A program made the translations under genes and the position numbers. Shown here piece by piece: positions 1-59,159 of a stretch of DNA of 64,000 nt (the first letter of the stretch is position 1; every line of letters begins with the position of its first letter). The notes below the pieces were generated by a model. The model was given only the letters and a program-made list of their open reading frames with translations, searched no databases and was not told the DNA's origin. Origin of the DNA: a bacterium. GTDB lineage: Bacteria; Babelota; Babeliae; Babelales; UASB340. The stretch is from NCBI GenBank assembly GCA_030629005.1, contig DAOVPV010000006.1, forward strand, positions 3,472-67,471, in the 5' to 3' direction.

Positions 1-1325
1 CATCAAAAAAGTTTTCGTTTTTGGCATTAAATGACGGGTCCTGCTTTAATAGTTTGCAAATCGTTATAGATACAAACATGCCAAAATATGAAGAAACAAT
101 ATCACTACTTTCTACAGGAGCTTCTGTAAAAATTACAGGCAAAATTGTCCAAAGCCCAGGAAAAGAACAATCTATAGAACTTATGGCTCAAGATATAACA
201 GTTATTGGTAAATGTGATCCGGAAACATACCCTTTACAAAAAAAACGACATTCTTTTGAATTCTTAAGAGAAATTGCACACCTAAGACCAAGGACTAATA
301 CTTTTGGAGCAATTGCAAGAGTAAGAAATGCTTTGTCATTTGCAACTCACCAATTCTTCCAAGAAAAAGGTTTTTTATATATTCACACTCCGATTATAAC
401 TGCCGCAGATTGTGAAGGTGCGGGTGAAATGTTTAAAGTAACAACTTTAGATTTAGAAAACCCACCTAAAACTGATAAAAACAATTCGGAAGAAACATTT
501 AATGTTACGGATTATTCAAAAGATTTTTTCGAAAAACCTACATACCTAACAGTATCTGGCCAACTTGAAGGTGAAGCTTACGCATGCGCACTTTCTAATA
601 TTTATACATTTGGACCAACATTTAGAGCTGAAAATTCTAACACTTCCAGACATTTAGCAGAATTCTGGATGATAGAGCCTGAAATGGCTTTTGCAGATCT
701 AAACGATAACATGGATTATGCAGAAGAATATATAAAATATTGTTTAAAATATCTCTTAGAAAAATGTCCTCAAGATATGAAATTTTTTAACAGATATATT
801 AAACCAGGACTTATCGATAAATTAAACAACGTAATAAATTCACCATTTGAAAGACTAGAGTATACAAAGGCAATTGAAATTCTTAAAAACTCCGGCAAAA
901 AATTTGAATATAAAATTAAATGGGGATCTGATTTACAATCCGAGCACGAAAGATACCTTACCGAAGAACATTTTAAAAAACCTGTAATTTTATATAACTA
1001 TCCAAAAGAAATAAAAGCATTTTACATGCGTCAAAATGATGATGGCAAAACAGTTGCCGCAATGGACGTGCTTGTAGAAGGTGTCGGAGAAATAATCGGT
1101 GGTTCTCAAAGGGAAGAACGTCTAAATGTTCTAGAAGAAAAAATGGACCAAACTAGATTAGATAAAGAAAATTACTGGTGGTACCTAGAGCTTAGAAAAT
1201 ATGGTTCAGTTCCTCACGCAGGATTTGGGCTAGGCTTTGAACGACTTATACAATTTGCTACAGGTATGGAAAATATTCGAGATGTTATTCCATTTCCAAG
1301 ATATCCAGGACATTGTGATTTTTAA
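1..1325 (+). CDS. asnS: asparaginyl-tRNA synthetase (5' end cut off by window edge)
   Basis: The reading frame is open to position 1. Class II aaRS motifs are present: [38 protein letters not shown]. It is colinear with E. coli AsnS as recalled. Confidence 0.95.
486..506 (+). repeat. 21-nt hairpin-core repeat, copy 1 (TCGGAAGAAACATTTAATGTT)
   Basis: Exact match to the consensus. It is in frame in asnS and read as SEETFNV. It is identical over 25 nt to the copy at 58518. Confidence 0.9.
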
Positions 1326-1357
1326 TATAATTTAATTTATAATAAAATTTCTAACTT

Positions 1358-1413
1358 AAAAAAGAACGTTTGTTTTGATTTGAAATTAAAGGTCAAAACA
1401 GTCGTTCTTTTTT
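1358..1413 (+). terminator. rho-independent terminator after asnS
   Basis: AGAACGTTTGTTTTGA pairs with TCAAAACAGTCGTTCT (14 of 16 bp) and is followed by a T-run. Confidence 0.7.
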
Positions 1414-1492
1414 AATTATTGCACTTTATCCCCAAATTATTGTAACTATCTTTTAGGAAAAAATATAAACCCTTTTTTGCGGGGGGGTACCG

Positions 1493-2732: not shown

Positions 2733-2808
2733 TGGTGGAGGTAAGCGGAGTCGAACCGCTGGCCTTCCGCTTGCAAAGCGGACGCTCTACCAACTGAGCT
2801 ATACCCCC
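2733..2808 (-). tRNA. tRNA-Ala (anticodon UGC), CCA encoded
   Basis: The reverse complement GGGGGTATAGCTCAGTTGGTAGAGCGTCCGCTTTGCAAGCGGAAGGCCAGCGGTTCGACTCCGCTTACCTCCACCA folds as a cloverleaf. The G3:U70 Ala identity pair is present and the anticodon loop is TTTGCAA. Confidence 0.95.
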
Positions 2809-2833
2809 GAAAATTTCAAGTGGCCGTGCCTTT

Positions 2834-2876
2834 TGCCCTACTTCGCTTTAAAAAGCTACGAAGGGCATACTTCGCG
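2834..2876 (-). repeat. GC-rich tRNA-linked repeat module R2
   Basis: TGCCCTACTTCGCTTTAAAAAGCTACGAAGGGCATACTTCGCG has a close copy at 13833-13871. It contains two TACTTCGC boxes. Confidence 0.7.
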
Positions 2877-2920
2877 TCCTTTCTATCAATATCAGGCTTA
2901 AAACTATCTCTTTTAAAAGA

Positions 2921-3015
2921 CTGGCTTGCCATACGACCTGTCCTACGAAGCCACGTAGGGCGTAGTAGGAAGCCTTTACGCCGTCGCTAAAGCTATGGCG
3001 CACATGGGCGAAGTA
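2921..3015 (-). repeat. GC-rich tRNA-trailer repeat module R1 plus CCA-adjacent box
   Basis: CTGGCTTGCCATACGACCTGTCCTACGAAGCCACGTAGGGCGTAGTAGGAAGCCTT is about 90% identical to 14129-14185. The segment ends in GGCGAAGTA directly against the tRNA-Ile 3' end. Confidence 0.75.
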
Positions 3016-3092
3016 TGGTGGGCCTAAGTAGACTCGAACTACTGACCTCTCCGTTATCAGCGGAGTGCTCTAGCCAACTGAGCTATAGGCCC
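3016..3092 (-). tRNA. tRNA-Ile (anticodon GAU), CCA encoded
   Basis: The reverse complement GGGCCTATAGCTCAGTTGGCTAGAGCACTCCGCTGATAACGGAGAGGTCAGTAGTTCGAGTCTACTTAGGCCCACCA folds as a cloverleaf. The anticodon loop is CTGATAA. Confidence 0.95.
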
Positions 3093-3449: not shown

Positions 3450-3590
3450 ATACAAACTTTACATATAAAAAAAACAAACATAGGGGCCGAATGGCCCTTG
3501 CTCATTTAATGCTATAATCTATAATAATTAACGAATACTCCTCGCAACAAGCTAATGAAATATCATTCAAGAATTTGATTTTTTATTATT

Positions 3591-3667
3591 ACTGGACCCT
3601 GAAACAAGTTCAGGGTGACACACGCAGAATGCAAATTTGTCATCCTAAACTCGTTTCAGGATCCAGT
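3591..3667. repeat. nested palindromic MITE-like element, copy 1
   Basis: The arms ACTGGACCCTGAAACAAGTTCAGGGTGACA and TGTCATCCTAAACTCGTTTCAGGATCCAGT are 26/30 complementary. Each arm holds its own small hairpin (CTGAA-ACAAG-TTCAG). The element is intergenic, upstream of prfB. Confidence 0.8.
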
Positions 3668-3722: not shown

Positions 3723-4805
3723 ATGTTAATTGATGAATTAAGAGAAAAATTAAAAAATATAGAACCTGCAGTTATTGCCATTAAAGACTTTTGGCAAAAC
3801 TCCAACAATCAAGAAAAATTTCTAGAGCTTGATAAACAAATAAATCAAGAAAATTTCTGGCAAAACCCAGATAGAACAAATATTCTAAAAAAATATCTGT
3901 TTATTAAAAACCTAAAAGAAAATTTTGATGATGTAACTAATTCTTTTGAGGAAAACAAAGAACTAATAGAATTATTTGAAACAAACGAAAAAGAACTTAA
4001 AAAACTTATTGGCGAAATAAATTCATTGGTGAAAAAAACAAAAAAATTTAAACTCGAACTTTTGTTAAACAAACCAGAAGATTTATCCAATTGCTTTTTA
4101 AGTATAAACTCAGGAGCTGGTGGCACAGAGTCTCAAGACTGGGCAAATATGCTTTTACGCATGTATACCCGTTTTTGTGAACGAGAAAATTTTTCTATAG
4201 AAATGATAGATTGCCAGTCCGGGGAAGAAGCCGGCATAAAATCTGCTTCTTTATATATTAAAGGTAAAAATGCTTTCGGGTTTTTAAAAAGTGAAAATGG
4301 TATTCACAGATTAGTGCGTATTTCTCCATTTGATGCAAATAAAAGAAGACATACCTCATTTGCAGCAGTAAGCATCACACCTGAAGTGGAAGAAAAATCT
4401 GTAGAAATAAACGATAACGATTTAAAAATAGATACATTCAAAGCCGGTGGCGCTGGCGGACAACACGTAAACAAAACCGAATCTGCCATAAGAATTACAC
4501 ACATTCCATCAAAAATAGTTGTACAATGTCAAAGCCAACGCTCGCAAGGACAAAATAAACAAACTGCAATGAAAATGCTTGCTGCAAAACTTGTCGCAAA
4601 ACAAAAACAAGAAAAACTCGAAAAAGAACAATCTGTAGTAAAGAAAAAAATTGAGTGGGGTTCACAAATTAGATCTTACGTTCTACATCCATATAAAATG
4701 GTAAAAGACTTAAGAACAAATTATGAAAATCCTCAACCAGAATTAGTGCTAGACGGTAACCTAATGCCAATGATAGAAAAATATTTACTCGAATTTAACT
4801 CATAA
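3723..4805 (+). CDS. prfB: peptide chain release factor 2 (single uninterrupted ORF)
   Basis: The RF2-specific SPF tripeptide (RISPFDANKRRHTSF) and the GGQ motif (GGAGGQHVNKTES) are present. The length of 360 aa is close to E. coli RF2. Confidence 0.95.
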   Translation: MLIDELREKLKNIEPAVIAIKDFWQNSNNQEKFLELDKQINQENFWQNPDRTNILKKYLFIKNLKENFDDVTNSFEENKELIELFETNEKELKKLIGEINSLVKKTKKFKLELLLNKPEDLSNCFLSINSGAGGTESQDWANMLLRMYTRFCERENFSIEMIDCQSGEEAGIKSASLYIKGKNAFGFLKSENGIHRLVRISPFDANKRRHTSFAAVSITPEVEEKSVEINDNDLKIDTFKAGGAGGQHVNKTESAIRITHIPSKIVVQCQSQRSQGQNKQTAMKMLAAKLVAKQKQEKLEKEQSVVKKKIEWGSQIRSYVLHPYKMVKDLRTNYENPQPELVLDGNLMPMIEKYLLEFNS

Positions 4806-4809
4806 AAAA

Positions 4810-4830
4810 TTGGAAAAAACATTTAATGTT
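4810..4830 (+). repeat. 21-nt hairpin-core repeat, copy 2 (intergenic)
   Basis: TTGGAAAAAACATTTAATGTT has 2 mismatches to the consensus. It fills the prfB-tilS spacer, and its ATG is the first in-frame start of the tilS ORF. Confidence 0.8.
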
Positions 4831-5836
4831 CATGATTTTTGATAAATTAGAAAAAGAATTAAAAAATATTATCAACTTAAGCGACAAACCCAAAATTATC
4901 CTGGGCCTTTCTGGAGGGCCAGACTCTGTATTCTTATTTTATTTTTTAAAAAAGCTAGCTCAAGAAAATAAAATACAGTTAATTTGCGCACATCTAGACC
5001 ATGAATGGCGGAAAGAATCTAAATCTGATGTAGAGTTTTGTAAAAATCTATGTAAACAACATAAAATTAAATTTATTTCTAATACAACAAATGAATTAAA
5101 TCTTAATTTAAAATTTAATGGCTCCCAAGAAGAAATCGGCAGAAAATTAAGACGTCATTTCTTTAATAAAGTTTTAAAAGAAAATAACGCAAATTATGTT
5201 GCATTAGCTCATCACCTGCAAGACCAGCAAGAAACATTCTTTTGGAGAATTATTAGAGGGACAACATTAAACGGCTTAATTGGAATGAAAAAACTACAAC
5301 CTCCCTACATTCGGTCTTTATTAGATATAGAAAAAAAAGAAATCTTAAATTATTTAAATAAAAATAATATTACGTATTTAATAGACCAAACGAACGACTC
5401 TGATAAATATTTACGCAATAGGATTAGAAAATATGTAATCCCAAGCTTAGAAAAAGTCGACCCTAGATTTTCTAAGAAATTTGCTACAACTTTAAATTAT
5501 CTACAAGAAGAAGAAGCTTTTATTAAAAAAATCACAGAAAATAGTTTTAATAATCTTTTTAAAAAATCTGAAGAAACATTTAATGTTATAGAACAAAAGA
5601 ATTGTTCAGAAAATAAGTTTATCGGAAATCTCAAAGAATTTTTATCTTTAGATACCGTGTTACAAAAAAGAATTATTATTTATTGGTTGACAAAAGAAAA
5701 GGTAAAATTCAGCCCCAGCAATAATTTCTTACTAGAAATTTTACGATTTCTAAAAAATGAAAATGGCGGAGTTCACAAAATAGACAATAACTTCTCTATT
5801 TATAAAAAACAGAATAAATTCAAAATCACAGCTTAA
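4826..5836 (+). CDS. tilS: tRNA(Ile)-lysidine synthase
   Basis: The PP-loop SGGPDS and HLDHEWR are present, and the tilS-like C-terminal region follows. The start is ambiguous between ATG 4826, which lies inside the repeat, and ATG 4832. Confidence 0.9.
   Translation: MFMIFDKLEKELKNIINLSDKPKIILGLSGGPDSVFLFYFLKKLAQENKIQLICAHLDHEWRKESKSDVEFCKNLCKQHKIKFISNTTNELNLNLKFNGSQEEIGRKLRRHFFNKVLKENNANYVALAHHLQDQQETFFWRIIRGTTLNGLIGMKKLQPPYIRSLLDIEKKEILNYLNKNNITYLIDQTNDSDKYLRNRIRKYVIPSLEKVDPRFSKKFATTLNYLQEEEAFIKKITENSFNNLFKKSEETFNVIEQKNCSENKFIGNLKEFLSLDTVLQKRIIIYWLTKEKVKFSPSNNFLLEILRFLKNENGGVHKIDNNFSIYKKQNKFKITA
5567..5587 (+). repeat. 21-nt hairpin-core repeat, copy 3
   Basis: TCTGAAGAAACATTTAATGTT has 1 mismatch. 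It is in frame in tilS and read as SEETFNV. Confidence 0.9.
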
Positions 5837-7087: not shown

Positions 7088-8518
7088 GTGGCAGAAGTAG
7101 TAATTGTTGGTGCAGGACTAACAGGATTAACTGCAGCATATCATCTAGAAAAAAATAATTTTTACGATTTTAAGATTTTCGAAAAAGAAAATACACCTGG
7201 TGGACTTCTACGCTCTTTTACCAAAGATGGATTTACTTTTGATTTTACAGGCCACCTTTTACACATAAGCAACCCAGATTTTTATAATTTTTTAGACGAA
7301 ACTGCTGGCATCCAAAATTTTCTAGTTCAAAATAGAAGTTCTTTTATACATACAAATAATACATTCACAGACTATCCTTTTCAGACAAACCTTTATGGCC
7401 TTCCTGAAAAAATAATTTATGACGTAATCCTTGGATTTATAAATAGACAAAAAAATACTAGAAATCCAAAAAACTTTCATGAATGGGTACTAAAACATTT
7501 TGGTTCCGGTATCGGCAAACACTTTTTATTTCCATATAATCAAAAACTTTTAGCCTACAATATAAAACAAATAGAACACTCATGGACTGGAAGATTTGTA
7601 CCTTCTACAAACTTAAAAAATATAATTTATGGAGCATTAAATAAAAAAAATGCAAAAACAAACCTAGGTTATAATAGCAAATTTTATTATCCAAAATTCG
7701 GCGGCATACAGTATTTAATAGATAAATTACAAAATAAAATAAAAGCTAAAATAAATACCAACTTTAAACTATTCAAAATCGATCTAAAAAATAAACTTGT
7801 TCTTTTTGAAAATGGTCATATAGAAAAATTTAAACATCTTATTTCAACAATGCCACTAAATAATTTACTTAAATGCTCAATAGATAGGACAAATACAAAT
7901 TTACAAAAACAACACACAAATCTTTTATGTAATTCTGTAATAAACTTTAACTTGGGCTTTAATGCCAAAAATTTCGATACAAATTTTAAAAACAAACACT
8001 GGATATATTTTCCAGAAAAAAAATATCTTTTTTATAGACTAGGATTTTGGAATAACATATGCAAAAACTTAGCGCCAAACAATACATATTCAACATATGG
8101 TGAAGTTTCTTTTATGCCACAAACATCGAAAGAAACATTTAATGTTAAAGATCATAAACAAATAGAAAAATTAACAGAAAACTCAATTAATCAAACTATC
8201 AAATATTTAAATATTAATAAAAAAGACATATTAATAAAAAAAACATTAATACTTAAACATGCATATGTAATTTACAATACTTGGAGAAAAAAATATTTAA
8301 ATACTATTCACAAAGAATTAAAAATGGAAGGAATAAATTCTATCGGAAGATTTGGAGAATGGAAATATTCTAGCATGCAAGAAGCATTTATAGATGGAAA
8401 AAATACAGCTATTAAAATATTACATAATATGAAACAAGTAAGTCCCAAAAATTTTAGCCCCAAAAAAATAGAAGGCCTTATTAAACATGAACAAGCTACA
8501 AAACGTTTACAACAATAA
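7088..8518 (+). CDS. FAD-dependent oxidoreductase (amine oxidase / UDP-galactopyranose mutase-like fold)
   Basis: The ORF has a GTG start. A Rossmann dinucleotide motif VVIVGAGLTGLTAAYHL is followed by GGLLRSF..GFTFDFTGH. It lies next to a sugar-nucleotide epimerase gene. Confidence 0.7.
   Translation: MAEVVIVGAGLTGLTAAYHLEKNNFYDFKIFEKENTPGGLLRSFTKDGFTFDFTGHLLHISNPDFYNFLDETAGIQNFLVQNRSSFIHTNNTFTDYPFQTNLYGLPEKIIYDVILGFINRQKNTRNPKNFHEWVLKHFGSGIGKHFLFPYNQKLLAYNIKQIEHSWTGRFVPSTNLKNIIYGALNKKNAKTNLGYNSKFYYPKFGGIQYLIDKLQNKIKAKINTNFKLFKIDLKNKLVLFENGHIEKFKHLISTMPLNNLLKCSIDRTNTNLQKQHTNLLCNSVINFNLGFNAKNFDTNFKNKHWIYFPEKKYLFYRLGFWNNICKNLAPNNTYSTYGEVSFMPQTSKETFNVKDHKQIEKLTENSINQTIKYLNINKKDILIKKTLILKHAYVIYNTWRKKYLNTIHKELKMEGINSIGRFGEWKYSSMQEAFIDGKNTAIKILHNMKQVSPKNFSPKKIEGLIKHEQATKRLQQ
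8126..8146 (+). repeat. 21-nt hairpin-core repeat, copy 4
   Basis: TCGAAAGAAACATTTAATGTT has 1 mismatch. It is in frame and read as SKETFNV. Confidence 0.9.
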
Positions 8519-9470: not shown

Positions 9471-10601
9471 ATGACAAAAAAAGATTATTACGAGATTTTG
9501 GGCGTATCAAAAGGTGCATCTAAAGACGAAATTAAAAAATCATACAGAAAAATAGCTTTAAAATACCATCCTGACAAAAACCCAGACAATAAGGAAGCAG
9601 AAAATAAATTTAAAGAAGCATCAGAAGCCTACGAAGTTTTATCCAACGAACAAAAAAGAACAAAATACGATCAATTCGGCCACTCTGGCATGCAAGGCGG
9701 CTCAGACTTCCATGAATATGCAGATTTTGGAGATATTTTTTCAAATTTTGGAGATATCTTCTCGGATCTTTTTGGAGCAGGACAAGCCAGACAAACAAGA
9801 AGTAAATCCGGCATAACACCTCAAAGGGGACATGATCTTTCTTTTAACGTAGAAATTTCATTAAAAGAATCTTATCTCGGTGTAAAAAAAGGTATTTATA
9901 TATCTCACTACGTAAGTTGTACTACATGCAATAATTCTGGCTGTACGGCGGGTACAAAACCCGAAAGGTGTATATCATGCCACGGAACCGGTGCAGTAAA
10001 TTACAGACAAGGTTTCTTTTCATTTTCTCAACCATGTAACAAGTGTGGGGGCCAAGGCTTTATAATAAAGACTCCATGTCCAAAATGTAAGGGGCAATCT
10101 CGAACACGAACAAGAGAGACTATAACCGTAAATATACCCGCTGGAGTTTATAACAACGCAGAACTTAGAGTAAAATCAAAAGGTGATGCAGGCGTTTATG
10201 GCGGAAGCTCTGGAGATCTTTACATAAACTTAAGCGTAAAACCTAATAAAATATTTTGGAGAAAAAATAACAATCTTGTAACAAATCTAAATTTAACATA
10301 TCCACAACTAGTTCTTGGTTGCCAAGTAGATATCGAAAATATCGATAGCCAAACTCATACAATAAAAATTCATAAGGGTTGCCAAATAGATGAAGATGTC
10401 GTTCTTCCAGGAAAAGGCTTTGCAATACCAGGTAGCTTAGCTCGAGGAAATTTAATTGTTATTACAAAATGCCATATACCAAAAAAATTACCATCAAAAG
10501 CAAAAGAACTTTTATTAGAGTATGCAGACAAAATAGGTAACAATGTCGAAAGCAACTCTGAATCGGGAATATCAGGTTTTTTTAAAAAATTTTTAGGATA
10601 A
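9471..10601 (+). CDS. dnaJ: molecular chaperone DnaJ
   Basis: A J domain with HPD is followed by a G/F region and four CxxCxGxG zinc-finger repeats. No dnaK or grpE is adjacent. Confidence 0.95.
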
Positions 10602-10702
10602 ATTAAATTTATATTATTTTTTTTGTTTTAAAAAATAATATATTTGTTAAAATCTTTTAACATGTAAAGTTTTTAGTTGTGGTTATTTTGAAAGGAATTT
10701 GT

Positions 10703-11437
10703 ATGAAGAAGTTTTTAAAACTTATTGCATTTTGTTTATTATTTTCTGTAAGTGCAAACGCTGTAAGCAAAATTACATTAGAAAAACTCGAAAATATTGT
10801 ACGAAAACTTGAAGATTTGAACAATAATCCTGAAAATCCCGAAAATATAAATAATAAAATAAAAAATATCGAAACAGAATTTGAACTACTACAAAAAGAA
10901 GATCCAAATTTAGAAAACAATGAACTTTCTGAAAAAACAAAAGTTTTAATTGAAACCGTAAAATCTTTTAATGCAGCAGAAAAAAAAGCTTTCTTAAAAA
11001 AATATAAAAAAGAAATTGCTGTTTTAACTGCATTAGTCGCTGCAAGTGCAGCTGGTGGATTTGCTTTAAAGAAAGCATCAGCTAAGCAAGCTGCAAAAGA
11101 ATTAGATAGAATAGAAAACAAAGAAGAATCTAATCGATTTATGAAATGGGCTTCAAAACATGCTAAATTTCTAAAAAAAGAAAAGAAAGAAGAAAAAGAA
11201 AAAGTTGAAGAGATCGTAGAAAATTCAGAAAGCAATATCGAAGAGACGCCAATAAGAATAAGCCGATTGGATCGATTTTGGAATTTTGTTACTCGAGCTA
11301 AAATAGCAAATTCAGAAAGCGATATCGAAGAAGCACCAATAAAAACAGGCCTATTGGATCGATTTTGGAATTTTGTTTCTCGAGCTAAATCTGAAACATC
11401 TGATTCTAGTGAATTATCTGATTCTTTCGACAATTAA
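10703..11437 (+). CDS. secreted coiled-coil protein with 29-aa tandem repeat
   Basis: The signal peptide MKKFLKLIAFCLLFSVSANA begins at an internal ATG of ORF 10679-11437. An 87-bp tandem duplication at 11222-11395 encodes two SES(N/D)IEE.PI....LDRFWNFV.RAK units. The mirror ORF on the - strand was rejected. Confidence 0.7.
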   Translation: MKKFLKLIAFCLLFSVSANAVSKITLEKLENIVRKLEDLNNNPENPENINNKIKNIETEFELLQKEDPNLENNELSEKTKVLIETVKSFNAAEKKAFLKKYKKEIAVLTALVAASAAGGFALKKASAKQAAKELDRIENKEESNRFMKWASKHAKFLKKEKKEEKEKVEEIVENSESNIEETPIRISRLDRFWNFVTRAKIANSESDIEEAPIKTGLLDRFWNFVSRAKSETSDSSELSDSFDN

Positions 11438-11506: not shown

Positions 11507-12769
11507 CTATACAACCAAAACTTTTAAAAATTCTTCTAAAGAAGTATCTCCTGAATAAACTTTCTCTAAAGCATCAGCCTCTATAAATTTCATATTTCTT
11601 TGTAATAGCTTTTTTTTAATTTGTGCAAAATCAGATTTTTTAGAAATTAAATCTCGAAGTTCATCATCTACTTTTAACAATTCGAAAACACCTAAGCGCC
11701 CCTTATAACCAAGATTAAAACAGTGATTACAACCACACGGTCTATTAATTTCACTCAAATTAATATTTTCTAAATTAATATTTTTATTTTTAATATATTC
11801 CATTTCTTGATCTGTAATAGCATCTTGAGATTTACAATTATTACAAAGTTTACGAACCAATCTTTGAGATAAAACACCAGACAATGCCGCATTAATTAAA
11901 TAAGGGTCAACGCCCATATTAACTAATCTTGTAATAGAACTAACTGTATCATTGGTGTGTAAAGTACTAAAAACCAAATGCCCCGTTAACGCTGCTTCTA
12001 TAGCAATTTTGGCTGTCTCCTTATCTCGTATTTCTCCAACCATTATAATATCCGGATCTTGTCGTAAAATAGAACGTAAACCTTTTGGAAAAGTAAAACC
12101 GGACTTTTCATTTATCTGACTTTGAACAACACCATCGATGTTATACTCAACAGGATCTTCCATTGTAACAATATTTTTCTGGCCATTATTAAGATATGAC
12201 AATATAGAATACAAAGTCGTCGTTTTACCAGAGCCAGTTGGCCCTGTTATTAAAAAAAATCCATGAGGCCGCCCGACTAAATCTTGCAAACAAGAAACCA
12301 TTTTTGAATTCATACCAAGATTATCTAGGCTAATTTTATTTTTAGAAGCATCAAGTATGCGTATAACCATCTTTTCGCCATAAATAGTTGGAAATGTAGA
12401 AATACGCATATCAACCAAATTATGATCCGACGGTCCCCTAAAAACATTTGCCAAAATTTTGCCATCTTGAGGCATACGCTTTTCAGCAATATCTAAACCT
12501 GACAAGATTTTCAATCTCGAAATAATAGACATACCTATATCAGAATCTATAGAATCTTGATCATACAAAACACCATCAATCCTATAACGAACTCTTAGAT
12601 TTTCTTGATTCTGTTCTAAATGAAGATCTGATGCATTATAATCTACACCAATAAATAAAAGGGAATCCACCAAATCTATTACTTGATCATTGGGAATTCC
12701 CTTTTTTAATTTTTCTTCTTTAGAAAAAAGACTATAAACAAACTCTCTCTCTGCCTTTTTTTCCGCCAC
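11507..12769 (-). CDS. GspE/PilB-family secretion or type IV pilus ATPase
   Basis: Walker A GPTGSGKTTT, MVGEIRD, GHLVFSTLHTND and a tetracysteine motif (CNNC...CNHC) are present. It is short (420 aa) and lacks the long N-terminal domain. Confidence 0.9.
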   Translation of the reverse strand: MAEKKAEREFVYSLFSKEEKLKKGIPNDQVIDLVDSLLFIGVDYNASDLHLEQNQENLRVRYRIDGVLYDQDSIDSDIGMSIISRLKILSGLDIAEKRMPQDGKILANVFRGPSDHNLVDMRISTFPTIYGEKMVIRILDASKNKISLDNLGMNSKMVSCLQDLVGRPHGFFLITGPTGSGKTTTLYSILSYLNNGQKNIVTMEDPVEYNIDGVVQSQINEKSGFTFPKGLRSILRQDPDIIMVGEIRDKETAKIAIEAALTGHLVFSTLHTNDTVSSITRLVNMGVDPYLINAALSGVLSQRLVRKLCNNCKSQDAITDQEMEYIKNKNINLENINLSEINRPCGCNHCFNLGYKGRLGVFELLKVDDELRDLISKKSDFAQIKKKLLQRNMKFIEADALEKVYSGDTSLEEFLKVLVV

Positions 12770-12776: not shown

Positions 12777-13184
12777 TTATCCTAATTTATATCCAATTAA
12801 AAAACCAACAGTACAAGAAACAAAAGTCACCAAATTTTGCTTAATCCACTCAAAAGCAGTATTCAAAAGCATTCCAAAATCTGATGTTGGATCAAGGCCT
12901 AAAAGAAGGTTTAAAGCAGTCCAATCTATAGCTAAAACATTTTTATACTCAAAAACCAAAACTATTACCATTGCAAATAAAATAGTAAAAAAAACAAATT
13001 TAAAATATTTTTTAAATAAAAATCCAATAGCAAAGCCTAAACCAAAATATACTGCAGCCTGAACAGCCTGAGAAGACGATCCTCCAATTTGTTCCGACCA
13101 TTTTTTTATATCAACAGCCTCCCAAATAGACTTAATCCAATTTATAAAACTTTCGAATCTTCCCGGAGCAATGGTATCTTGCAT
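12777..13184 (-). CDS. small integral membrane protein, FUN14-like
   Basis: 135 aa with 3-4 hydrophobic helices. GLGFAIGFLFKK and the C-terminal GFLIGYKLG resemble the FUN14 family pattern. Confidence 0.55.
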   Translation of the reverse strand: MQDTIAPGRFESFINWIKSIWEAVDIKKWSEQIGGSSSQAVQAAVYFGLGFAIGFLFKKYFKFVFFTILFAMVIVLVFEYKNVLAIDWTALNLLLGLDPTSDFGMLLNTAFEWIKQNLVTFVSCTVGFLIGYKLG

Positions 13185-13665: not shown

Positions 13666-13832
13666 ACATAACTCCTAAAATTCTGGCATGATTTCTAATT
13701 AGTCAACACAAACACACAAACAACACAAACTTTTTATAAGCATATCTACGATGTATATTGACATGATTTTTCTTTGTCAAGAAATTGCATAAATAATCGC
13801 TACGCCAATCGTAGCTTAATCAAATTTCTATT

Positions 13833-13871
13833 AGCCCTACTTCGCTCTAAAGAACTACGAAGAGCACACGG
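13833..13871 (-). repeat. GC-rich tRNA-linked repeat module R2
   Basis: AGCCCTACTTCGCTCTAAAGAACTACGAAGAGCACACGG is a copy of 2834-2876. Its TACTTCGCTC (13838-13847) is the perfect complement of the tRNA-Leu trailer at 13927-13936. Confidence 0.7.
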
Positions 13872-13936
13872 CAGAATAAACTCCGCTACTTCATCCCAAG
13901 TAATTTACTTGTAAATCATATCGAGGGAGCGAAGTA

Positions 13937-14024
13937 TGGTGCCGAGGGCCGGACTCGAACCGGCACAGGTTTAAAACCCGAGGGATTTTAAGTCCCTTGC
14001 GTCTACCAATTCCGCCACCCCGGC
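13937..14024 (-). tRNA. tRNA-Leu (anticodon UAA), long variable arm, CCA encoded
   Basis: The reverse complement is GCCGGGGTGGCGGAATTGGTAGACGCAAGGGACTTAAAATCCCTCGGG...GGTTCGAGTCCGGCCCTCGGCACCA. The anticodon loop is CTTAAAA. Confidence 0.95.
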
Positions 14025-14128
14025 ATATAATAACCGTTATAATTATGTACAATTTTTAAATATTAGCAACATTTTTTTGTTTTATTTTTTAGAAAAAAAA
14101 TTTTAGTGAATATTTTAAATTGAAGAAA

Positions 14129-14193
14129 TGGCCGTGCCATACGACTTGTCCTACGAAGCCACGTGGGGCGTAGTAGGAAGCCTTGGCGAAGTA
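14129..14193 (-). repeat. GC-rich tRNA-trailer repeat module R1 plus CCA-adjacent box
   Basis: The sequence is TGGCCGTGCCATACGACTTGTCCTACGAAGCCACGTGGGGCGTAGTAGGAAGCCTTGGCGAAGTA. It has an internal imperfect hairpin around the palindrome CCACGTGG. It abuts the tRNA-Cys 3' end. Confidence 0.75.
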
Positions 14194-14267
14194 TGGAGGC
14201 GGCACCCGGAATTGAACCGGGGATAGCGGTTTTGCAGACCGCGGCCTTACCACTTGGCTATGCCGCC
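14194..14267 (-). tRNA. tRNA-Cys (anticodon GCA), CCA encoded
   Basis: The reverse complement is GGCGGCATAGCCAAGTGGTAAGGCCGCGGTCTGCAAAACCGCTATCCCCGGTTCAATTCCGGGTGCCGCCTCCA. The U73 discriminator typical of tRNA-Cys is present. The 5' end lies 6 nt after the miaB stop codon. Confidence 0.95.
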
Positions 14268-18429: not shown

Positions 18430-20328
18430 TTAAAAATTTAATTCTTCCCAAAGAGCTAAATTTTTATTTAGCTCTTTTTCAAGTTTATTTAAAATATATA
18501 AAGTTTGATCGTAATCCTTTGAACCATACTCTAAGCTTTCAAACTTTTTAGTTAAAAGCTCTAACTCAACTTCTTGTTTTGATATTTTAGTCTCTAAGCG
18601 CCTAATAAGTTTTCTTTTTTCATAATCGTTTTCTTTGAGTTTTGTTTTATGACAAATATCCTTAGCTTTAGATTCTATAATTTCTGCATCTTGCAAAACT
18701 TCTTTCTGCGCATTTTTTTGAACCAAAAAAGAATCGTAATTACCTTTATACTTATAAGCTGAATCTTCTTTTAGTTCTATAATAGAAGTTGCAAGATTAT
18801 TTAAAAAATCTCTATCGTGAGAAACAAATAAAACAGTTCCATCATATTTTTTAAGAACATTTAACAAAACATCTTTAGATTCTATATCAAGGTGATTTGT
18901 AGGCTCATCTAATAATAAAAAATTTGCATTTTGTAGCAAAACTTTTATCATTGCAACACGATTTTTTTCACCACCACTCAAAACACTTACTCTTTTGTCA
19001 ACATCATCACCACTAAAAAGAAATGCTCCGAGAAGCCCACGAACTCTCTGTCTTTGCTCCGATGTTTTGCAAGCAGATTCTACCTCTTTAATTAAATCAT
19101 TTTTTAAATTTAAAGATTTATTTTGATCTTGTTCAAAAAAAGCAGTTTTTACATTATGACCAAGCTCAAAAGAACCTGCATTACTTTTCAATTTATTCAT
19201 AATAATGTTGAGCACCGTTGATTTACCCTGGCCATTGGGTGCTACAATAGCAACCATTTCACCACGCTCAATTTCAAACGAAATATCTTTAAATATTTTT
19301 TTATCAGCAAAACTTTTTGATAATTTTTTCACAGTTAAAACAATTTTTCCGGTTCGCACTACTTTAGGTAAGCTAAAACGCATTATCTGTGATTTAGGTT
19401 CTAGCTTTACCATCTCTATTTTGTCTAAAGCCTTTAGCCTACTTTGAACCATTTTCGCTTTTGTAGCGGACGCCCTAAATCTATCGATTAACTCTCGTTC
19501 TTTTTTTAAAAACTTTTGTTGTTCCACAAATTTCTTTTCCAAAAGTTCTTGATTATGTTTTTTCTGTTCTAGATATTTAGAATAATTACCTGTAAAAATA
19601 TTTATATGACCTAAGCTTACCTCATAAATTTGATTACAAAGTTTATCTAAAAAATATCTATCGTGGCAAACCAACATAAAACCAAAGCCGGAAGAAGCAT
19701 TTAATGTTTGGGATCTTTTTAAAAAATCCAAAAACCAATCTTTTGCAACCAAATCCAAATGGTTTGTAGGTTCATCAAATAAATAAAAGTCAGCTTTTTG
19801 TAATAAAAGTTTTGCCAAAACCAACCGCATTTTCCAACCAACAGAAAGAGTTTGTACAGGATCTGTAAATTGTTGTTCGCGAAACCCAAGCCCCAATAAA
19901 ATATTTTTTGCTTCTGTTATTTTTTTTTCAAATTCTAATTCTTGCAAATTGATTTGTAACAAAGAATATCTCTCTAAATCTTCTACACTGCTATCATCTA
20001 ATTTTTTTTCTAAAGAATTATACTCTTCTACTAAATCACCTAAATTACCTAACATTATTTTATAGATATTAAGAGCTTCTCTAAAAATAGTCTTCTCTGA
20101 TAGAAGGATTACGTTTTGTGGTAAATATGCAACCTTTTTGTCGCCCTGGATATTAATTTGACCAGAGTCATACTCCTGTTGCCCTGCAATAATTTTTAGC
20201 AATGTCGTTTTTCCAGAGCCATTTCTACCAACAAGACCAATTCTTTGATTTGAATTAACTGTAAAAGAAATATTATCAAAAATGGCACATTGCCCAAAAT
20301 TTAAGCTTAAATTTTTTACTATAAACAT
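18430..20328 (-). CDS. ABC-F family ATPase (Uup/YheS/EttA-like)
   Basis: Two ABC cassettes are present: GRNGSGKTT with LSVGWKMR, and APNGQGKST with LSGGEKNR. There are no TM domains, and the C-terminus is a coiled coil. Confidence 0.9.
   Translation of the reverse strand: MFIVKNLSLNFGQCAIFDNISFTVNSNQRIGLVGRNGSGKTTLLKIIAGQQEYDSGQINIQGDKKVAYLPQNVILLSEKTIFREALNIYKIMLGNLGDLVEEYNSLEKKLDDSSVEDLERYSLLQINLQELEFEKKITEAKNILLGLGFREQQFTDPVQTLSVGWKMRLVLAKLLLQKADFYLFDEPTNHLDLVAKDWFLDFLKRSQTLNASSGFGFMLVCHDRYFLDKLCNQIYEVSLGHINIFTGNYSKYLEQKKHNQELLEKKFVEQQKFLKKERELIDRFRASATKAKMVQSRLKALDKIEMVKLEPKSQIMRFSLPKVVRTGKIVLTVKKLSKSFADKKIFKDISFEIERGEMVAIVAPNGQGKSTVLNIIMNKLKSNAGSFELGHNVKTAFFEQDQNKSLNLKNDLIKEVESACKTSEQRQRVRGLLGAFLFSGDDVDKRVSVLSGGEKNRVAMIKVLLQNANFLLLDEPTNHLDIESKDVLLNVLKKYDGTVLFVSHDRDFLNNLATSIIELKEDSAYKYKGNYDSFLVQKNAQKEVLQDAEIIESKAKDICHKTKLKENDYEKRKLIRRLETKISKQEVELELLTKKFESLEYGSKDYDQTLYILNKLEKELNKNLALWEELNF
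19688..19708 (+). repeat. 21-nt hairpin-core repeat, copy 5
   Basis: CCGGAAGAAGCATTTAATGTT has 2 mismatches. It lies in + polarity inside a - strand gene, where it is read as TLNASSG. Confidence 0.85.
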
Positions 20329-22596: not shown

Positions 22597-22619
22597 AACT
22601 TACATAAATTTATTTAATA

Positions 22620-22699
22620 ACTGGATACTGAAACAAGTTCAGCATGACAATTGAAATACCAAGTCCTCTTGTCATTCTGAACTTGTTTCAGAATCTAGT
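22620..22699. repeat. nested palindromic MITE-like element, copy 2
   Basis: The arms are AACTGGATACTGAAACAAGTTCAGCATGACA and TGTCATTCTGAACTTGTTTCAGAATCTAGT. It is intergenic between the NurA-like and Fic genes. Confidence 0.8.
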
Positions 22700-22721: not shown

Positions 22722-23909
22722 TTAAACGCCAATACCACGTTTTTTAATACTCTTTTGCGAAAAAAATAATCTTTTATTTTGCTCAAAAGCTTCCCGCTGT
22801 AATAAACTATAAAAAAATTCACGGTCTGGACCCTTTACAACTGCAGCTTCATGCGCATAAGCCAAAGTTACAGGATAACCTAAACCCTTTTTTATTTGGT
22901 CTAAAGCAACCGCGGACAAAAAATCTAACATATCTTTATCTTGCGCAATATAGGCGAAAGTTTCTATACGCACAACTTCTACATCTGCATTTAAATAAAA
23001 AAAACATGGCTTTAGATGTTCTGGATAACTCTTTGTAATTTTTGAATTACTAAAAAAAATATTACTACGTTCATTTATATTTAAATAAGTTTTTGCTATT
23101 CGTGTATCTATTAAATTATCTACAGCCTTACATGGAAAATCACTATAAACTCTGTGACAAGAAATACATTCTGCAAAATCAAACCGACATAAACCTAGCT
23201 TTATTAAATTTACAAGCTCTTTGCTTTTAGGAAAACTTATAAAACCAGCTATTATTTTTTTATTCTCATAAAATTTTTGCAAAATATTTAAGTATGAATT
23301 CAAGAACAAATCTTTAATTTCTTCTGGTTTAGATTCTAAAAACCAAAAAATTACCGTACCATCTACAAACGCAATATCTATATTTTCTTCTAAAGTTAAT
23401 TTTAGCAAATTTAATAATTCAAGTTCCTCTCTCTTTAAATCTACAATATCATTAGAAAAATTTATCTTATTATTTTGATCTAAAAAATCTTGAATTATAA
23501 AAAGAGTTGGCTCTGAATTTATTTTTACAGAACTATTTTCGTCGGAAGAAACATTTAATCTTGAAGAAACATTTAATATTTTTGAATATTTTATCTGACA
23601 ACTACCAATATTTATTAAAAAACAACCTGAATTAGAAATATTTCGGTCTGGATATATCTGAGAACCATCTACAGATAGTATAGAATAATCATTTTTTTGA
23701 ATTGGAATTTTAAATTTATCAGACAAATTACCAGCCCACGATGGAACCAAAAAACTTGCGTTAGAATTTTCTACTTTAGCTTTAAATTTAGAATCTACAG
23801 AAATACTTTGCCATTTTTCCTGAGCTATACTTGACTGCTCTGTAAAATTATTAAAAAGCTTATCTGCATTTTTTTTTAGTTGTAAAAAAAGACTATTTTT
23901 ATTTAACAT
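22722..23909 (-). CDS. NurA-domain nuclease-like protein
   Basis: ILSVDGSQIYPD, FVDGTVIFW and the C-terminal GYPVTLAYAHEAAVV resemble the NurA nuclease family pattern from memory. No HerA-like partner is adjacent. Confidence 0.45.
   Translation of the reverse strand: MLNKNSLFLQLKKNADKLFNNFTEQSSIAQEKWQSISVDSKFKAKVENSNASFLVPSWAGNLSDKFKIPIQKNDYSILSVDGSQIYPDRNISNSGCFLINIGSCQIKYSKILNVSSRLNVSSDENSSVKINSEPTLFIIQDFLDQNNKINFSNDIVDLKREELELLNLLKLTLEENIDIAFVDGTVIFWFLESKPEEIKDLFLNSYLNILQKFYENKKIIAGFISFPKSKELVNLIKLGLCRFDFAECISCHRVYSDFPCKAVDNLIDTRIAKTYLNINERSNIFFSNSKITKSYPEHLKPCFFYLNADVEVVRIETFAYIAQDKDMLDFLSAVALDQIKKGLGYPVTLAYAHEAAVVKGPDREFFYSLLQREAFEQNKRLFFSQKSIKKRGIGV
23542..23580 (+). repeat. 21-nt hairpin-core repeat, copies 7 and 8 (tandem, 18-nt period)
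   Basis: The sequence is TCGGAAGAAACATTTAATCTT followed by GAAGAAACATTTAATATT. In the - strand gene it is read as ILNVSS-RLNVSS. Confidence 0.85.
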
Positions 23910-24047: not shown

Positions 24048-24857
24048 TTAAAAATCTTTACCAAAAGATAAATCTGCTAATTCTTGATAAAGCTCTTCAT
24101 CTTCTTTTAATTTCTCAGGCAATTCCATCTTTTCCTCTTTTTCTACATCATCAGATTCTTCATCATCTGGCAAATCCAAAATCATTTTTTCATCATCAAT
24201 AATCTTCTCTTCATCTTTTGGCTCTTCTGCAATAACTTCTTCTATTATTTCAACTTCAGGCTCTTCAACATCTTCTGTTATTTCAACTTCAGGTTCTTCA
24301 ATCTCTTGCTCTTCAATCTCTTGCTCTTCAAACTCCTGCTCTTCAACCTCTTGCTCTTCAAACTCCTGAGCTACAGGCTCAACAACAATCTTTTCTTCTA
24401 TTATTTCAACTTCAGGTTCTTCAACTTTTTCTATAACTTCTTCGACAACCGGCTCTGCAACCTCTTGCTCTTCAACCCCTTGCTCTTCAACCGTTGATTC
24501 AAAAACACTTGGCTCTTCAACATCTTCTGTTACAACTTCAGCTACGGGCTCAACAACAATCTTTTCTTCTATTATTTCAACTTCAGGTTCTTCAACATCT
24601 TCTGTTACAACTTCAGCAACAGGCTCTACAACCTCTTGCTCTTCAACCTCAGGTTCTTCAACTTTTTCTATAACCTCTGTTACAACCTCAGCAACAGGCT
24701 CAGCTTTAATCTCTTCTTCAACAGCCGGCTCAACTACCGACGCCGTTAATTCCGAATCCGAAAATTCGGAACCTAAATCAAAACCGGCTTCTGAATTTAT
24801 AAAAGCTATAAATAATATTTGCACTATTATTAATAATAGATAAATTCTTTTATTCAT
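24048..24857 (-). CDS. secreted, extremely acidic E/V-rich repeat protein
   Basis: A signal peptide MNKRIYLLLIIVQILFIAFINSEAG is followed by repeated EPEVEIIEEKIVVEPVAEVVTEDVEEP units. Identical 50-nt blocks occur at 24376-24425 and 24547-24596, spaced 171 nt (57 codons) apart. Confidence 0.75.
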   Translation of the reverse strand: MNKRIYLLLIIVQILFIAFINSEAGFDLGSEFSDSELTASVVEPAVEEEIKAEPVAEVVTEVIEKVEEPEVEEQEVVEPVAEVVTEDVEEPEVEIIEEKIVVEPVAEVVTEDVEEPSVFESTVEEQGVEEQEVAEPVVEEVIEKVEEPEVEIIEEKIVVEPVAQEFEEQEVEEQEFEEQEIEEQEIEEPEVEITEDVEEPEVEIIEEVIAEEPKDEEKIIDDEKMILDLPDDEESDDVEKEEKMELPEKLKEDEELYQELADLSFGKDF

Positions 24858-56900: not shown

Positions 56901-57062
56901 CCTCAGTAAACTAAATAAATAAAATCACATAAAAATAAATCTAGCCCATATCTTTAAAAGAACACAAAGTCTTTTAAAAAAAATTTGAATACTTGCATTT
57001 AAAGACAATTGTAATTTAAAATTTTTAGACAAAAAAAGTTTTGATAATTGGGGAAATACAAA

Positions 57063-58181
57063 ATGAAAAAAGTTTTAACAATTGGTGGATCAACCAAAGA
57101 TATATACCTTAGCAACCAAGGCGTTGACTATATGTCCATAACTCAAAAAAACTGTAATATAAAATATATGTTATTAAAGTCTGGAGATAAAATCGAAGTC
57201 GAAAACATTCTTTATTTTTCTGGCGGAGGAGCCACAAACTCTGCTGCATCATTTAAACGACTGGGATTTGATACGAGCTGTATTTCAAAAATAGGAAATG
57301 ATGAATCTGGAAAATTTGTAATTAATGAACTTGAAAAAGAAAATATAAATATCCAAAATATTATTAAATCTGAAGACAAAAACACAGGCACATCCTTTGT
57401 AATAAATACACTAGAGCGAGAACGAACTATATTTGCCTATAGAGGAGCCAACGGATATTTAGAAAAAAAAGACATCCCTTTTAATATCATTAAAAATACA
57501 GATCAAATCTATATAACATCACTAAGTCATGAATCATCTAAAGTTCTACCAGATATAGTTAAATTTACACATGAAAACAACATTCCCGTAGCAATAAATC
57601 CAGGAACAAGTCAACTCTCACATGGATCTCAAACTCTAAAAGAATCATTAAAATATATCGATACTATAATTATGAATAGTGATGAAGCCAAAACATTTAT
57701 GATAGCTCTTATAGAAAACGACAAAAACTATAAAGAGACACTTAAAAGCTCACGACAAAATAAATTGAACAGCGAATCAACAGAAAACAAACCTACCTTA
57801 CTAGACTCTCCACTCAGACACATGGACTATTATTTTAGCATATGGAAGTTTTTTAAAGAAGTTATGCACATGGGACCAAAAACCGTTGTCATTACAGATG
57901 GCGCAAACGGCGTCTATGTTGCAAATAATAAACAAATTTTTTATCACCCTAGCATTAAAACAGATGTTGTAGATACGCTCGGAGCTGGAGACTCATTTGG
58001 ATCATGCTTTGTTGCAAGCATTCTAGCAGAATACTCAACAGAGGAAGCTCTAATTAGAGGAATTATAAACAGCTCATCTGTTATTAGTAAATTTGGAGCA
58101 AAACCAGGTCTTTTAACAAAAGAAGAGTTAGATAAAAAGAAAATAGATTTTAGTCTTCTTCAAAAATTTAAACTAAACTAA
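57063..58181 (+). CDS. PfkB-family carbohydrate kinase
   Basis: GGGATNSA, NSDEA and DTLGAGDSFGSCF are present. I placed the start at the ATG after a GGGGA RBS. The ORF is open back to a TTG at 57048. It has an internal low-complexity insertion of about 50 aa. Confidence 0.85.
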   Translation: MKKVLTIGGSTKDIYLSNQGVDYMSITQKNCNIKYMLLKSGDKIEVENILYFSGGGATNSAASFKRLGFDTSCISKIGNDESGKFVINELEKENINIQNIIKSEDKNTGTSFVINTLERERTIFAYRGANGYLEKKDIPFNIIKNTDQIYITSLSHESSKVLPDIVKFTHENNIPVAINPGTSQLSHGSQTLKESLKYIDTIIMNSDEAKTFMIALIENDKNYKETLKSSRQNKLNSESTENKPTLLDSPLRHMDYYFSIWKFFKEVMHMGPKTVVITDGANGVYVANNKQIFYHPSIKTDVVDTLGAGDSFGSCFVASILAEYSTEEALIRGIINSSSVISKFGAKPGLLTKEELDKKKIDFSLLQKFKLN

Positions 58182-58199
58182 CTTTTAGGGAGAATATTC

Positions 58200-59159
58200 T
58201 TGCACAAAAAAATAGTTTTTATAGAAATAAATCAAAACAAAATATCTCTTGCAAATTTAATAGAATCAAAAGATAAATATACTCTTACAGATAAAGAAAC
58301 AACTAACCTAGATAAACTAACTTTTTTTGACAACAAACTATTTAATAACTCAAACCTTTTACAAATAATTCAAGAATATCTTAGTAAGAATAATATAAAA
58401 AAGGGTCGCAGTATTTTATCCGTTCCAAGCAACGTTTCAGAAATTACAATCCTCCAAATAGCCTTGTGCCTAAGTAAAACATGCCTTAAAATAGAAAAAA
58501 TAATATCATTAAATAATTCGGAAGAAACATTTAATGTTATTGAAAATTTTATATTAAAAAAAGATCTCCGAAAAACTACAAACCATTGGCAAGTATTTTT
58601 ACCACCAAAAAATCAAAATCCTAAAAAATGGATCGCTATTTCTTTAAGTATACTGATAATAGAATTTTCACTCTTAACAACAACAAGCATCAAAAAACAC
58701 ATTAACCATAAAAACCTTAAAAAACAAAATCTTTCGCTTAAACAAAAGGTAAAAGGTTTAAAATCAGAACTAAATAAAAATAACAATACCTCAAAAAGCA
58801 ACACCATGTTACAAAAAAAAATAAATAAGCTTTACGCAAAACAAAATCAACAATTCCTAAATAGCTTGTTGGACATTGCCAATCACCTACCACCAAATGC
58901 AAAATTAAACAAAATAAAGCTAATGAGTCAAAACAAAGAAATAGAAGAGAATAAGCAAACTTCTAATAAAAAAAATAAAGCAGCAATTTCATTAGAAGGC
59001 AAAAGTAAACACCAACAAAATCTTATTAACTTTGTAAAAAAATTAAATAACTCTAAAGTTTTTTCTAAAGCCTCATTAAAGAATATCAACAGAATAAAAG
59101 AGAAAATCTCCCATAAAATCTACAATTTTAATATCCATGCCAAACTAAACCCTCTATAA
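58200..59159 (+). CDS. hypothetical bitopic membrane protein (possible PilN-like assembly protein)
   Basis: A TTG start follows an AGGGAG RBS. A central TM helix (WIAISLSILIIEFSLLTTTSI) is followed by a K/N-rich coiled coil. The PilN-like call is tentative. Confidence 0.55.
   Translation: MHKKIVFIEINQNKISLANLIESKDKYTLTDKETTNLDKLTFFDNKLFNNSNLLQIIQEYLSKNNIKKGRSILSVPSNVSEITILQIALCLSKTCLKIEKIISLNNSEETFNVIENFILKKDLRKTTNHWQVFLPPKNQNPKKWIAISLSILIIEFSLLTTTSIKKHINHKNLKKQNLSLKQKVKGLKSELNKNNNTSKSNTMLQKKINKLYAKQNQQFLNSLLDIANHLPPNAKLNKIKLMSQNKEIEENKQTSNKKNKAAISLEGKSKHQQNLINFVKKLNNSKVFSKASLKNINRIKEKISHKIYNFNIHAKLNPL
58518..58538 (+). repeat. 21-nt hairpin-core repeat, copy 6
   Basis: Exact match to the consensus. 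It is in frame and read as SEETFNV. It is identical over 25 nt to copy 1. Confidence 0.9.

Follow-up and report, generated by a model that had tools for sequence, protein, structure and literature searches.

A 21-Nucleotide Hairpin Repeat Inserted with One Polarity before NNNGA(A/T) in a Dependentiae Genome: A Candidate Strand-Specific Micro-Element

We describe a 21-nt repeat, TCGGAAGAAACATTTAATGTT and its close variants, that is present in eight copies at seven loci of a 64,000-nt stretch of bacterial DNA (GenBank assembly GCA_030629005.1, contig DAOVPV010000006.1, positions 3,472 to 67,471 of the forward strand; GTDB lineage Babelota, Babeliae, Babelales, UASB340), referred to here as the window. 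As judged from alignments with related genomes, the copies are lineage-specific 21-nt insertions that entered, mostly within genes, directly in front of a short target sequence, and all of them have the same polarity on DNA that belongs to a single replichore. The mobility of the 21-mer is well supported. That it is a very small non-autonomous mobile element, moved strand-specifically on single-stranded DNA by an HUH/Y1-type enzyme acting in trans, is the explanation towards which we lean, short of calling it probable.

The window comes from a metagenomic scaffold of 96,050 bp (ENA ERZ23498683, ZHAN22-2_SAMN18200505_METAG-scaffold_62; run SRR13892594, BioSample SAMN18200505), of which ~79 kb was read, consisting of the 64-kb window and 15 kb of the same contig outside it. 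The G+C content of the window is ~30%, and an Rfam search of it returned four tRNAs only. The closest matches of the AsnRS and NurA proteins encoded in the window are proteins of Candidatus Dependentiae (TM6). The two nearest genomes, GCA_000989185.1 (TM6 GW2011_GWF2_28_16; AsnRS identity 80%) and GCA_018896115.1 (AsnRS identity 76%), served for comparison and are called R1 and R2 below. We found no description of such 21-nt elements in the Dependentiae literature.

Results

The repeat forms a sharply defined family

A first-pass annotation of this DNA, made from the sequence alone, had reported eight copies at seven loci, all with one polarity on the + strand. Scans of both strands gave the same result (Table 1). 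The host loci on the + strand are AsnRS, the spacer between RF2 and TilS, TilS, an amine-oxidase-like gene and a PilN-like gene. The two loci that the annotation had placed in - strand genes, with three copies between them, are ABC-F (one copy) and NurA (two copies). With the exception of the RF2/TilS spacer the loci are intragenic (6/7). When up to three mismatches were allowed, seven matches were found against 0.02 expected from shuffled sequence. In a position-weight scan of both strands of the window no true copy scored below 27.8 bits and nothing else above 11 bits, and neither decayed nor opposite-strand copies were detected. Since each copy carries only 0 to 2 mismatches and decayed copies are absent, the family is not only sharply defined but also young, that is, recently spread. 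No further copy was present in the 15 kb of the same scaffold outside the window. The copy at 58518 was found also in an independent Logan assembly of the same run.

In the repeat a tail of 8 nt, TCGGAAGA, is followed by a palindrome of 13 nt (AACATT-T-AATGTT), a perfect 6-1-6 arrangement. The corresponding hairpin is AT-rich, with a 5-bp stem, a 3-nt loop and a stability of -1.9 kcal/mol as DNA. Because the length of the 21-mer is divisible by three and stop codons are absent from four of its six reading frames, it survives in essential genes as a 7-residue loop insertion.

Table 1. Copies of the 21-nt repeat, with coordinates of the window.
Feature	Position	Strand	Sequence	Location	Translation	Six bases that follow
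Copy 1	486..506	+	TCGGAAGAAACATTTAATGTT (consensus)	Inside AsnRS (+ gene)	S-E-E-T-F-N-V	ACGGAT (507..512), target
Copy 2	4810..4830	+	TTGGAAAAAACATTTAATGTT	Spacer, RF2 stop codon (4805) to probable TilS ATG (4832)		CATGAT (4831-4836)
Copy 3	5567..5587	+	TCTGAAGAAACATTTAATGTT (TCTGAAG...)	Inside TilS (+ gene)	S-E-E-T-F-N-V	ATAGAA (5588-5593)
Copy 4	8126..8146	+	TCGAAAGAAACATTTAATGTT (TCGAAAG...)	Amine-oxidase-like flavoprotein (+ gene)	S-K-E-T-F-N-V	AAAGAT (8147-8152)
Copy 5	19688..19708	+	CCGGAAGAAGCATTTAATGTT (start CCGGAAGAAGC...)	Antisense in ABC-F (- gene)	T-L-N-A-S-S-G	TGGGAT (19709-19714, + strand)
Nested pair, 42 nt	23539..23580	+		Antisense in NurA (- gene)		TTTGAA (23581-23586), target
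NurA outer copy	23539-23541 and 23563-23580	+	TCG plus GAAGAAACATTTAATATT (18-nt partial repeat)	NurA		
NurA inner copy	23542-23562	+	TCGGAAGAAACATTTAATCTT (...AATCTT)	NurA, directly after outer TCG		GAAGAA
Copy 8	58518..58538	+	TCGGAAGAAACATTTAATGTT (consensus exactly)	Inside PilN-like gene (+)	S-E-E-T-F-N-V	ATTGAA (58539-58544)

The copies are absent from orthologous sites

The AsnRS protein has 468 aa here and 461 aa in the nine closest Dependentiae orthologues, and the difference is exactly the heptapeptide SEETFNV, placed between invariant blocks. The corresponding DNA is AAC AAT-TCGGAAGAAACATTTAATGTT-ACG GAT, with the 21-mer read in frame as seven codons, while R1 has AAT AAT GTC GAT and R2 has AAT AAT ATT GAT. 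Likewise, ABC-F contains exactly seven extra codons between FL(K/Q) and FGFMLV relative to both R1 and R2. NurA is 395 aa long as against 381 aa in most orthologues, with all 14 extra codons at one site, equal to 2 x 21 nt. At the site of the copy in the amine-oxidase-like gene there are seven more codons than in R2 and nine more than in R1, and the variable loop of TilS that holds copy 3 is longer by 13 codons than that of R1 and by 11 codons than that of R2. The RF2/TilS spacer, at 26 nt, is enlarged by ~21 nt (R1 has a 2-nt and R2 an 11-nt spacer); the true start codon of TilS is probably the ATG at 4832. No copy of the repeat was present in ~80 kb of largely syntenic DNA of R1 and R2.

We also considered whether the palindrome could have been built from an AATGTT that pre-existed at the target. 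This sequence is present in AsnRS and at the RF2/TilS junction of R1, and in the form AATGCT in ABC-F. The idea was rejected, as the insert lengths are inconsistent with it; some microhomology may be involved.

Insertion occurs at a fixed distance from a GA dinucleotide

The six bases 3' of each copy fit the pattern NNNGA(A/T), with G at +4 and A at +5 in 7/7 independent loci. From the background frequency of GA in the window (0.042) the probability of this is ~2e-10, or ~5e-9 after correction for 22 flank offsets. The three bases between the copy and the GA vary, and the flanks contain no direct repeat. In AsnRS the GA belongs to the Asp198 codon (GAT), which is invariant in all relatives. 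In NurA it corresponds, on the other strand, to the conserved Ser codon of a K-Y-S motif, and this Ser is encoded by TCT in R2. Because the GA is already present in the relatives, the alignments identify NNNGA(A/T) as the target site and not as imported sequence. Models with a target-site duplication of 3 nt or 5 nt were ruled out, the left triplet being constant and the right triplet variable.

The first six bases of the element itself, TCGGAA, also fit NNNGA(A/T). The 42-nt composite in NurA reads TCG^TCGGAAGAAACATTTAATCTT^GAAGAAACATTTAATATT (carets mark junctions), and the flank of the inner copy, GAAGAA, obeys the same rule. The pair is best explained by a second 21-mer that would have inserted into the first at its internal TCG^GAAGAA target, which accounts for both the length of 2 x 21 nt and the odd TCGTCG.

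The target rule also bears on the reading frames. Among the sense targets in genes of the window, 68% have GAW as a codon, so that insertion gives S-E-E-T-F-N-V, and at a further 16% insertion would produce a stop codon. Of the stop-free sites, 80% are predicted to give the observed sense frame and 76% the antisense T-L-N-V-S-S. The frames in use are that of SEETFNV in 4/4 sense copies and TLNxSS at 2/2 antisense loci. Because the target rule and codon usage together predict these constant frames, they need no extra explanation, and selection as their cause is unnecessary. The target rule and the exact insertion of seven codons are new relative to the first-pass annotation, and they are the most informative facts about the repeat.

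All copies have one polarity on a single replichore

The two-sided chance of about 0.016 that the annotation had calculated for seven loci is arithmetically right (7/7 loci with the same polarity, p = 0.016 under a 50:50 null). Stop-free target sites number 1237 genic and 227 intergenic for the + polarity, and 1905 genic and 272 intergenic for the - polarity. The single polarity is seen, then, although the opposite one has more stop-free targets. Under a null weighted by these sites P(+) is 0.40, the probability of 7/7 loci being + is 0.0017, and that of all loci being the same is 0.029.

The GC skew of the + strand at third codon positions is -0.36 in + strand genes and -0.49 in - strand genes, and the skew of intergenic DNA is -0.18. 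A exceeds T throughout, and third codon positions of genes on either strand are, when read on the + strand, rich in C and A. The leading strand is the - strand, and it holds about 70% of the coding DNA. Because the skew at third codon positions is negative whatever the strand of the gene, the whole window is one replichore, in which the + strand has lagging-strand composition; the window contains neither an origin nor a terminus. The lagging-strand template would then be the - strand, on which the target lies 5' of the element. The asymmetry at third codon positions, which is very strong and uniform across window positions 1-64000, would also ease the assignment of replichores in this genome.

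Four of the loci are located within 7.6 kb and 7/8 copies within 24 kb. This clustering was not significant (p = 0.08).

Searches of other sequence collections

An exact 18-mer scan of genome contigs gave more than 84 isolated matches, mostly to ordinary EETFNV-coding DNA in unrelated taxa. No genome with multiple copies was among the matches listed, and the 18-mer pattern is too unspecific. A 21-mer scan of metagenome contigs gave six isolated matches, none of them with TCG and none multi-copy, and a scan of viral contigs gave no matches. Likeness to parS, dif, the LexA box and the geminivirus nonanucleotide was dismissed by eye, the half-sites and spacing being different.

In a Dependentiae metagenome-assembled genome (WJIY01000017.1, positions 4505-4525 of the stretch read) we noted a 20/21 match, TCCGAAGAAACATTTAATGTT, that reads T-L-N-V-S-S in a 959-aa protein. 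Its flank, GCAAAT, breaks the NNNGA rule, and there is one copy in 8 kb. It may be a chance match or a distant relative of the element.

Discussion

A possible mechanism of insertion

The arrangement of the copies allows us to propose how they could have been inserted. On the - strand each locus reads 5'-(A/T)TCNNN^AACAT-TAA-ATGTT-TCTTCCGA^, that is, (A/T)TCNNN-AACATTAAATGTTTCTTCCGA. The hairpin end is joined 3' of 5'-(A/T)TCNNN, and the (A/T)TCNNN form recurs at the opposite end of the element, ...TTCCGA. A transposase of the HUH/Y1 type (IS200/IS605 TnpA or RAYT-like), supplied in trans, would cut 3' of both of these similar sites on single-stranded DNA, and the element would insert without target duplication directly 5' of NNNGA(A/T) on the + strand. 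A circle junction formed in this way would read ...TTTAATGTT^TCGGAAGAAAC..., and the same polarity would follow for every copy on one replichore, whatever the strand of the gene. A duplex of 21 bp would be too short for bending and for synapsis of both ends by a classical DDE transposase, which would favour a single-stranded route. From these features we infer a single-stranded intermediate, the class of the enzyme and a link to replication. A bolder version, which we regard as doubtful, is that the 21-mer is the smallest site-specific transposable unit so far: a single-hairpin mini-circle or dumbbell of 21 nt of single-stranded DNA, handled in trans by an HUH enzyme at the replication fork, and leaving 7-residue insertions in essential genes of an obligate intracellular bacterium with one polarity per replichore.

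Elements of the IS200/IS605 family always place their left end 3' of a specific tetra- or pentanucleotide, which is not duplicated, and a related cleavage site accompanies their right end (PMC5027513, PMC6006769). Of the two strands only the top one is active, with a preference of both excision and integration for the lagging-strand template, as reported for IS608 and ISDra2 (PMC5027513, PMC6006769). The 21-mer resembles this "peel and paste" system and its hairpin-only derivatives (PATEs) in its one-sided insertion at a short target, the lack of duplication, an end that is similar to the cleavage site in the flank, and the presence of a hairpin. Its presumed active strand would lie on the lagging-strand template, and all seven loci, on one replichore, are in the orientation predicted from this. 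The sequence 5'-(A/T)TCNNN precedes the hairpin end on the - strand in 8/8 copies, with only 2/5 target positions being specific. Most sites of the 21-mer, unlike those of IS200/IS605, are intragenic.

Several observations weigh against movement by an HUH/Y1 enzyme. No gene for a Y1/HUH protein, a RAYT or any other transposase, TnpA included, was found on the ~79 kb of contig read. The ends of IS200/IS605 elements have two subterminal hairpins together with guide tetranucleotides, whereas the 21-mer has a single, weak, AT-rich hairpin of 5 bp (-1.9 kcal/mol) and, at 21 nt, no room for separate left-end and right-end structures. The specific dinucleotide of the target lies 3 nt from the junction and does not abut it. 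The polarity bias is suggestive but only nominally significant, having been noticed post hoc in seven events on one replichore, and the agreement between the active strand and the lagging-strand template amounts to a single yes/no check with a prior of 50%. Eight copies on one replication arm cannot prove strand-specific transposition of single-stranded DNA. Finally, the homologues of the PilN-like protein are at most 39% identical, too divergent to tell whether the copy at 58518 is an insertion. For these reasons we say that the element would work like a hairpin element mobilised by an HUH enzyme, and we refrain from assigning it to that family.

Single-stranded insertion, of the IS200/IS605 or the REP-RAYT kind, had been one of three readings offered by the first-pass annotation. 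It is favoured by the status of the copies as insertions, the lack of duplication, the NNNGA at 7/7 loci, the end that mimics the target, the nested copy and the relation to the lagging-strand template, while the lack of a Y1/HUH gene on the contig DNA read and the weak hairpin speak against it. The insertions and the target rule strengthen this reading, which has more support than the other two, although it is unproven.

Comparison with other small repeats

REP and REPIN sequences mobilised by RAYTs share with the 21-mer the size class of ~20-40 nt, a short conserved 5' tail followed by an imperfect palindrome, a dispersed distribution and a non-autonomous character (PMC3116915, PMC6006769). 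REPs, however, lie outside genes. As a rule they are GC-rich and stable, and they are often arranged as inverted doublets (REPINs/BIMEs) in clusters around a RAYT gene. In the case of the 21-mer, 6/7 loci are in coding sequence, the tail TCGGAAGA is without GTAG, all copies are direct with no inverted pairs, and the ~79 kb of contig read contained no RAYT gene flanked by REPs.

The Rickettsia palindromic elements (RPEs) are selfish palindromic repeats found in frame in unrelated housekeeping genes of an obligate intracellular bacterium, to which they add a peptide compatible with function (PMC10969869). The 21-mer is similar in its in-frame intragenic insertion. RPEs differ from it in their length of ~100-150 bp, in encoding 30-50 residues and in their fixed sense; the 21-mer encodes 7 residues, occurs in both gene orientations with a fixed chromosomal polarity, and is from another taxon.

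A third group for comparison are the cyanobacterial repeats SDR1-8 of Elhai et al. 2008, reportedly dispersed hairpin repeats of 21-27 nt that are absent from orthologous sites in relatives and were argued to be the smallest mobile elements. They are said to be often embedded in heptamer tandem repeats or mini-transposons. The 21-mer matches them in size, in having a hairpin and in presence or absence at orthologous sites (in two relatives), a resemblance in kind only and not by sequence homology, and it differs in phylum and sequence. To our knowledge, neither a strand polarity nor a distance-defined target rule has been reported for SDRs. By analogy with these systems the 21-mer can be placed as a REP-, SDR- or PATE-like micro-element with a distinct sequence.

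Alternative explanations

The 21-mer could also be mobile, and prefer the target described, yet have reached its sites by another route, through short templated insertion during repair or replication, or through a nuclease/ligase or a recombinase unrelated to HUH enzymes. The uniform polarity would then be due to chance or be a by-product of local copying from one site to a close one on the same strand. The nominal significance of the polarity, the lack of a transposase on the contig DNA read, the marginal hairpin and the mild clustering (four loci within 7.6 kb, 7/8 copies within 24 kb) are compatible with such a route. Microhomology or template switching, however, predicts an origin of the junction triplets from donor or target that is the opposite of the pattern observed, in which a constant TCG on the 5' side contrasts with a variable triplet on the 3' side. 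Moreover, a strict distance-defined target combined with the lack of duplication and an end that mimics the target is the signature of sequence-specific cleavage and joining, and the clustering did not reach significance. We consider this route possible but on the whole improbable.

The copies could instead constitute a functional polar signal of the chromosome, either a KOPS/AIMS-like word or the binding site of a dimeric protein on the 13-bp palindrome, with selection keeping one orientation per replichore. A KOPS- or Chi-like motif was another of the three readings of the first-pass annotation. The one polarity of all copies within a single replichore is as in KOPS, Chi and AIMS, the spacing of about one copy per 8 to 10 kb is similar to the density of KOPS, and the perfect 6-1-6 palindrome could bind a dimer. 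Yet the known polar words are 8-mers that arise from point mutation, are conserved across species and are read on duplex DNA, whereas the copies described here are far longer and came about when 21 nt were inserted into genes for conserved proteins. The syntenic regions of R1 and R2 lack the motif, no other genome was enriched for it among the scan matches listed, and the conserved GA in the flank is a pre-existing target that forms no part of an imported site. A polar signal is highly improbable, and the KOPS/Chi reading, at odds with insertions that the nearest relatives lack, is not supported.

The third reading, a DNA-uptake sequence recognised by type IV pilus or competence machinery, is very improbable. 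The PilB-like ATPase that the annotation had cited at 11507-12769 is real, being a T2SSE family protein, a PilN-like gene is present at 58200-59159, and uptake sequences do sit in coding DNA in tolerated frames. The DUS/USS repeats, though, occur about once per kb in both orientations and are shared by relatives; here there are 8 copies in 64 kb, a density about ten times below the typical one, in a single orientation and of insertional origin. The motif is missing from relatives with 76-80% AsnRS identity, and the collection scans gave isolated, chance-like matches only, among the matches listed.

A sequencing or assembly artefact, for instance from adapter-like sequence or chimeric joins, is just as hard to credit. 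Over 8 nt the tail TCGGAAGA resembles the Illumina adapter core, GATCGGAAGAGC, and only one sample carries the repeat, but the bases before TCGG are not GA as in the adapter, the sequence after GAAGA differs from it, the copies are variants of one another rather than identical, every copy obeys the flank rule and leaves its host gene in frame and free of stop codons, and two assemblies of the run agree at 58518, the one copy covered by both.

If strand-specific movement of the 21-mer by an HUH/Y1 enzyme is correct, the lower size limit of a site-specific mobile element would be one hairpin with an 8-nt tail, and strand-specific transposition would operate inside essential coding sequence and not just in intergenic DNA. 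The repeat would provide a natural replication-oriented marker in Dependentiae/TM6, a phylum for which we know of no genetic tools, and a source of proteome-wide 7-residue loop insertions for the study of tolerance. The target rule and the target-mimicking end offer concrete substrates for the biochemistry of a candidate HUH enzyme.

Other repeats in the window and in R1

R1 contains different, GC-rich hairpin repeats, ...CATCCCGGGCAAGGACCCGGGATCYA, which are in frame in NurA and ABC-F, with one additional intergenic copy. They are at 10385-10424, 12401-12440, 12958-12997 and 14366-14405 of the R1 stretch read, 4/4 on the same strand. The NurA gene of R1 also has, at ~10740-10850 of that stretch, a GC-rich insertion of 36 residues, AFDKVDSTTQQAAALTTNAPFALSEVEGVAISKNAQ, that is found only in the NurA of this relative and looks like another repeat element translated in frame. 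Because small hairpin repeats of a different kind are in frame in the same genes of R1, we suggest that intragenic colonisation by micro-repeats may be general in this clade, as it is in Rickettsia.

Intergenic DNA of the window holds a separate REP-like family (TGTCAYCC-[GC-containing hairpin]-GGRTCYAGT) at 3580-3620, at 22609-22649 together with 22669-22699, and at 28175-28215. The copies at 22609-22699 form an inverted, REPIN-like pair with arms that are 90% complementary and 18 nt apart.

The - strand gene at 24048-24857 has a highly repetitive acidic coding region with a period of 15 nt, made of at least 13 copies of CTCTTGCTCTTCAAY units, and its third-codon-position GC skew, -0.86, is the most extreme in the window. 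At 11217-11389 there is a tandem duplication of 86 nt (88% identity), inside an open reading frame (10679-11437) that gave no Pfam match. The tRNA genes form two pairs, all on the - strand, at 2733-3092 (Ile-GAT/Ala-TGC) and 13937-14267 (Leu-TAA/Cys-GCA). No rRNA gene adjoins the Ile/Ala pair in the window. Both pairs are accompanied by common repeat segments of ~40-65 nt (2832-2976 versus 13831-14184, 85-86% identity).

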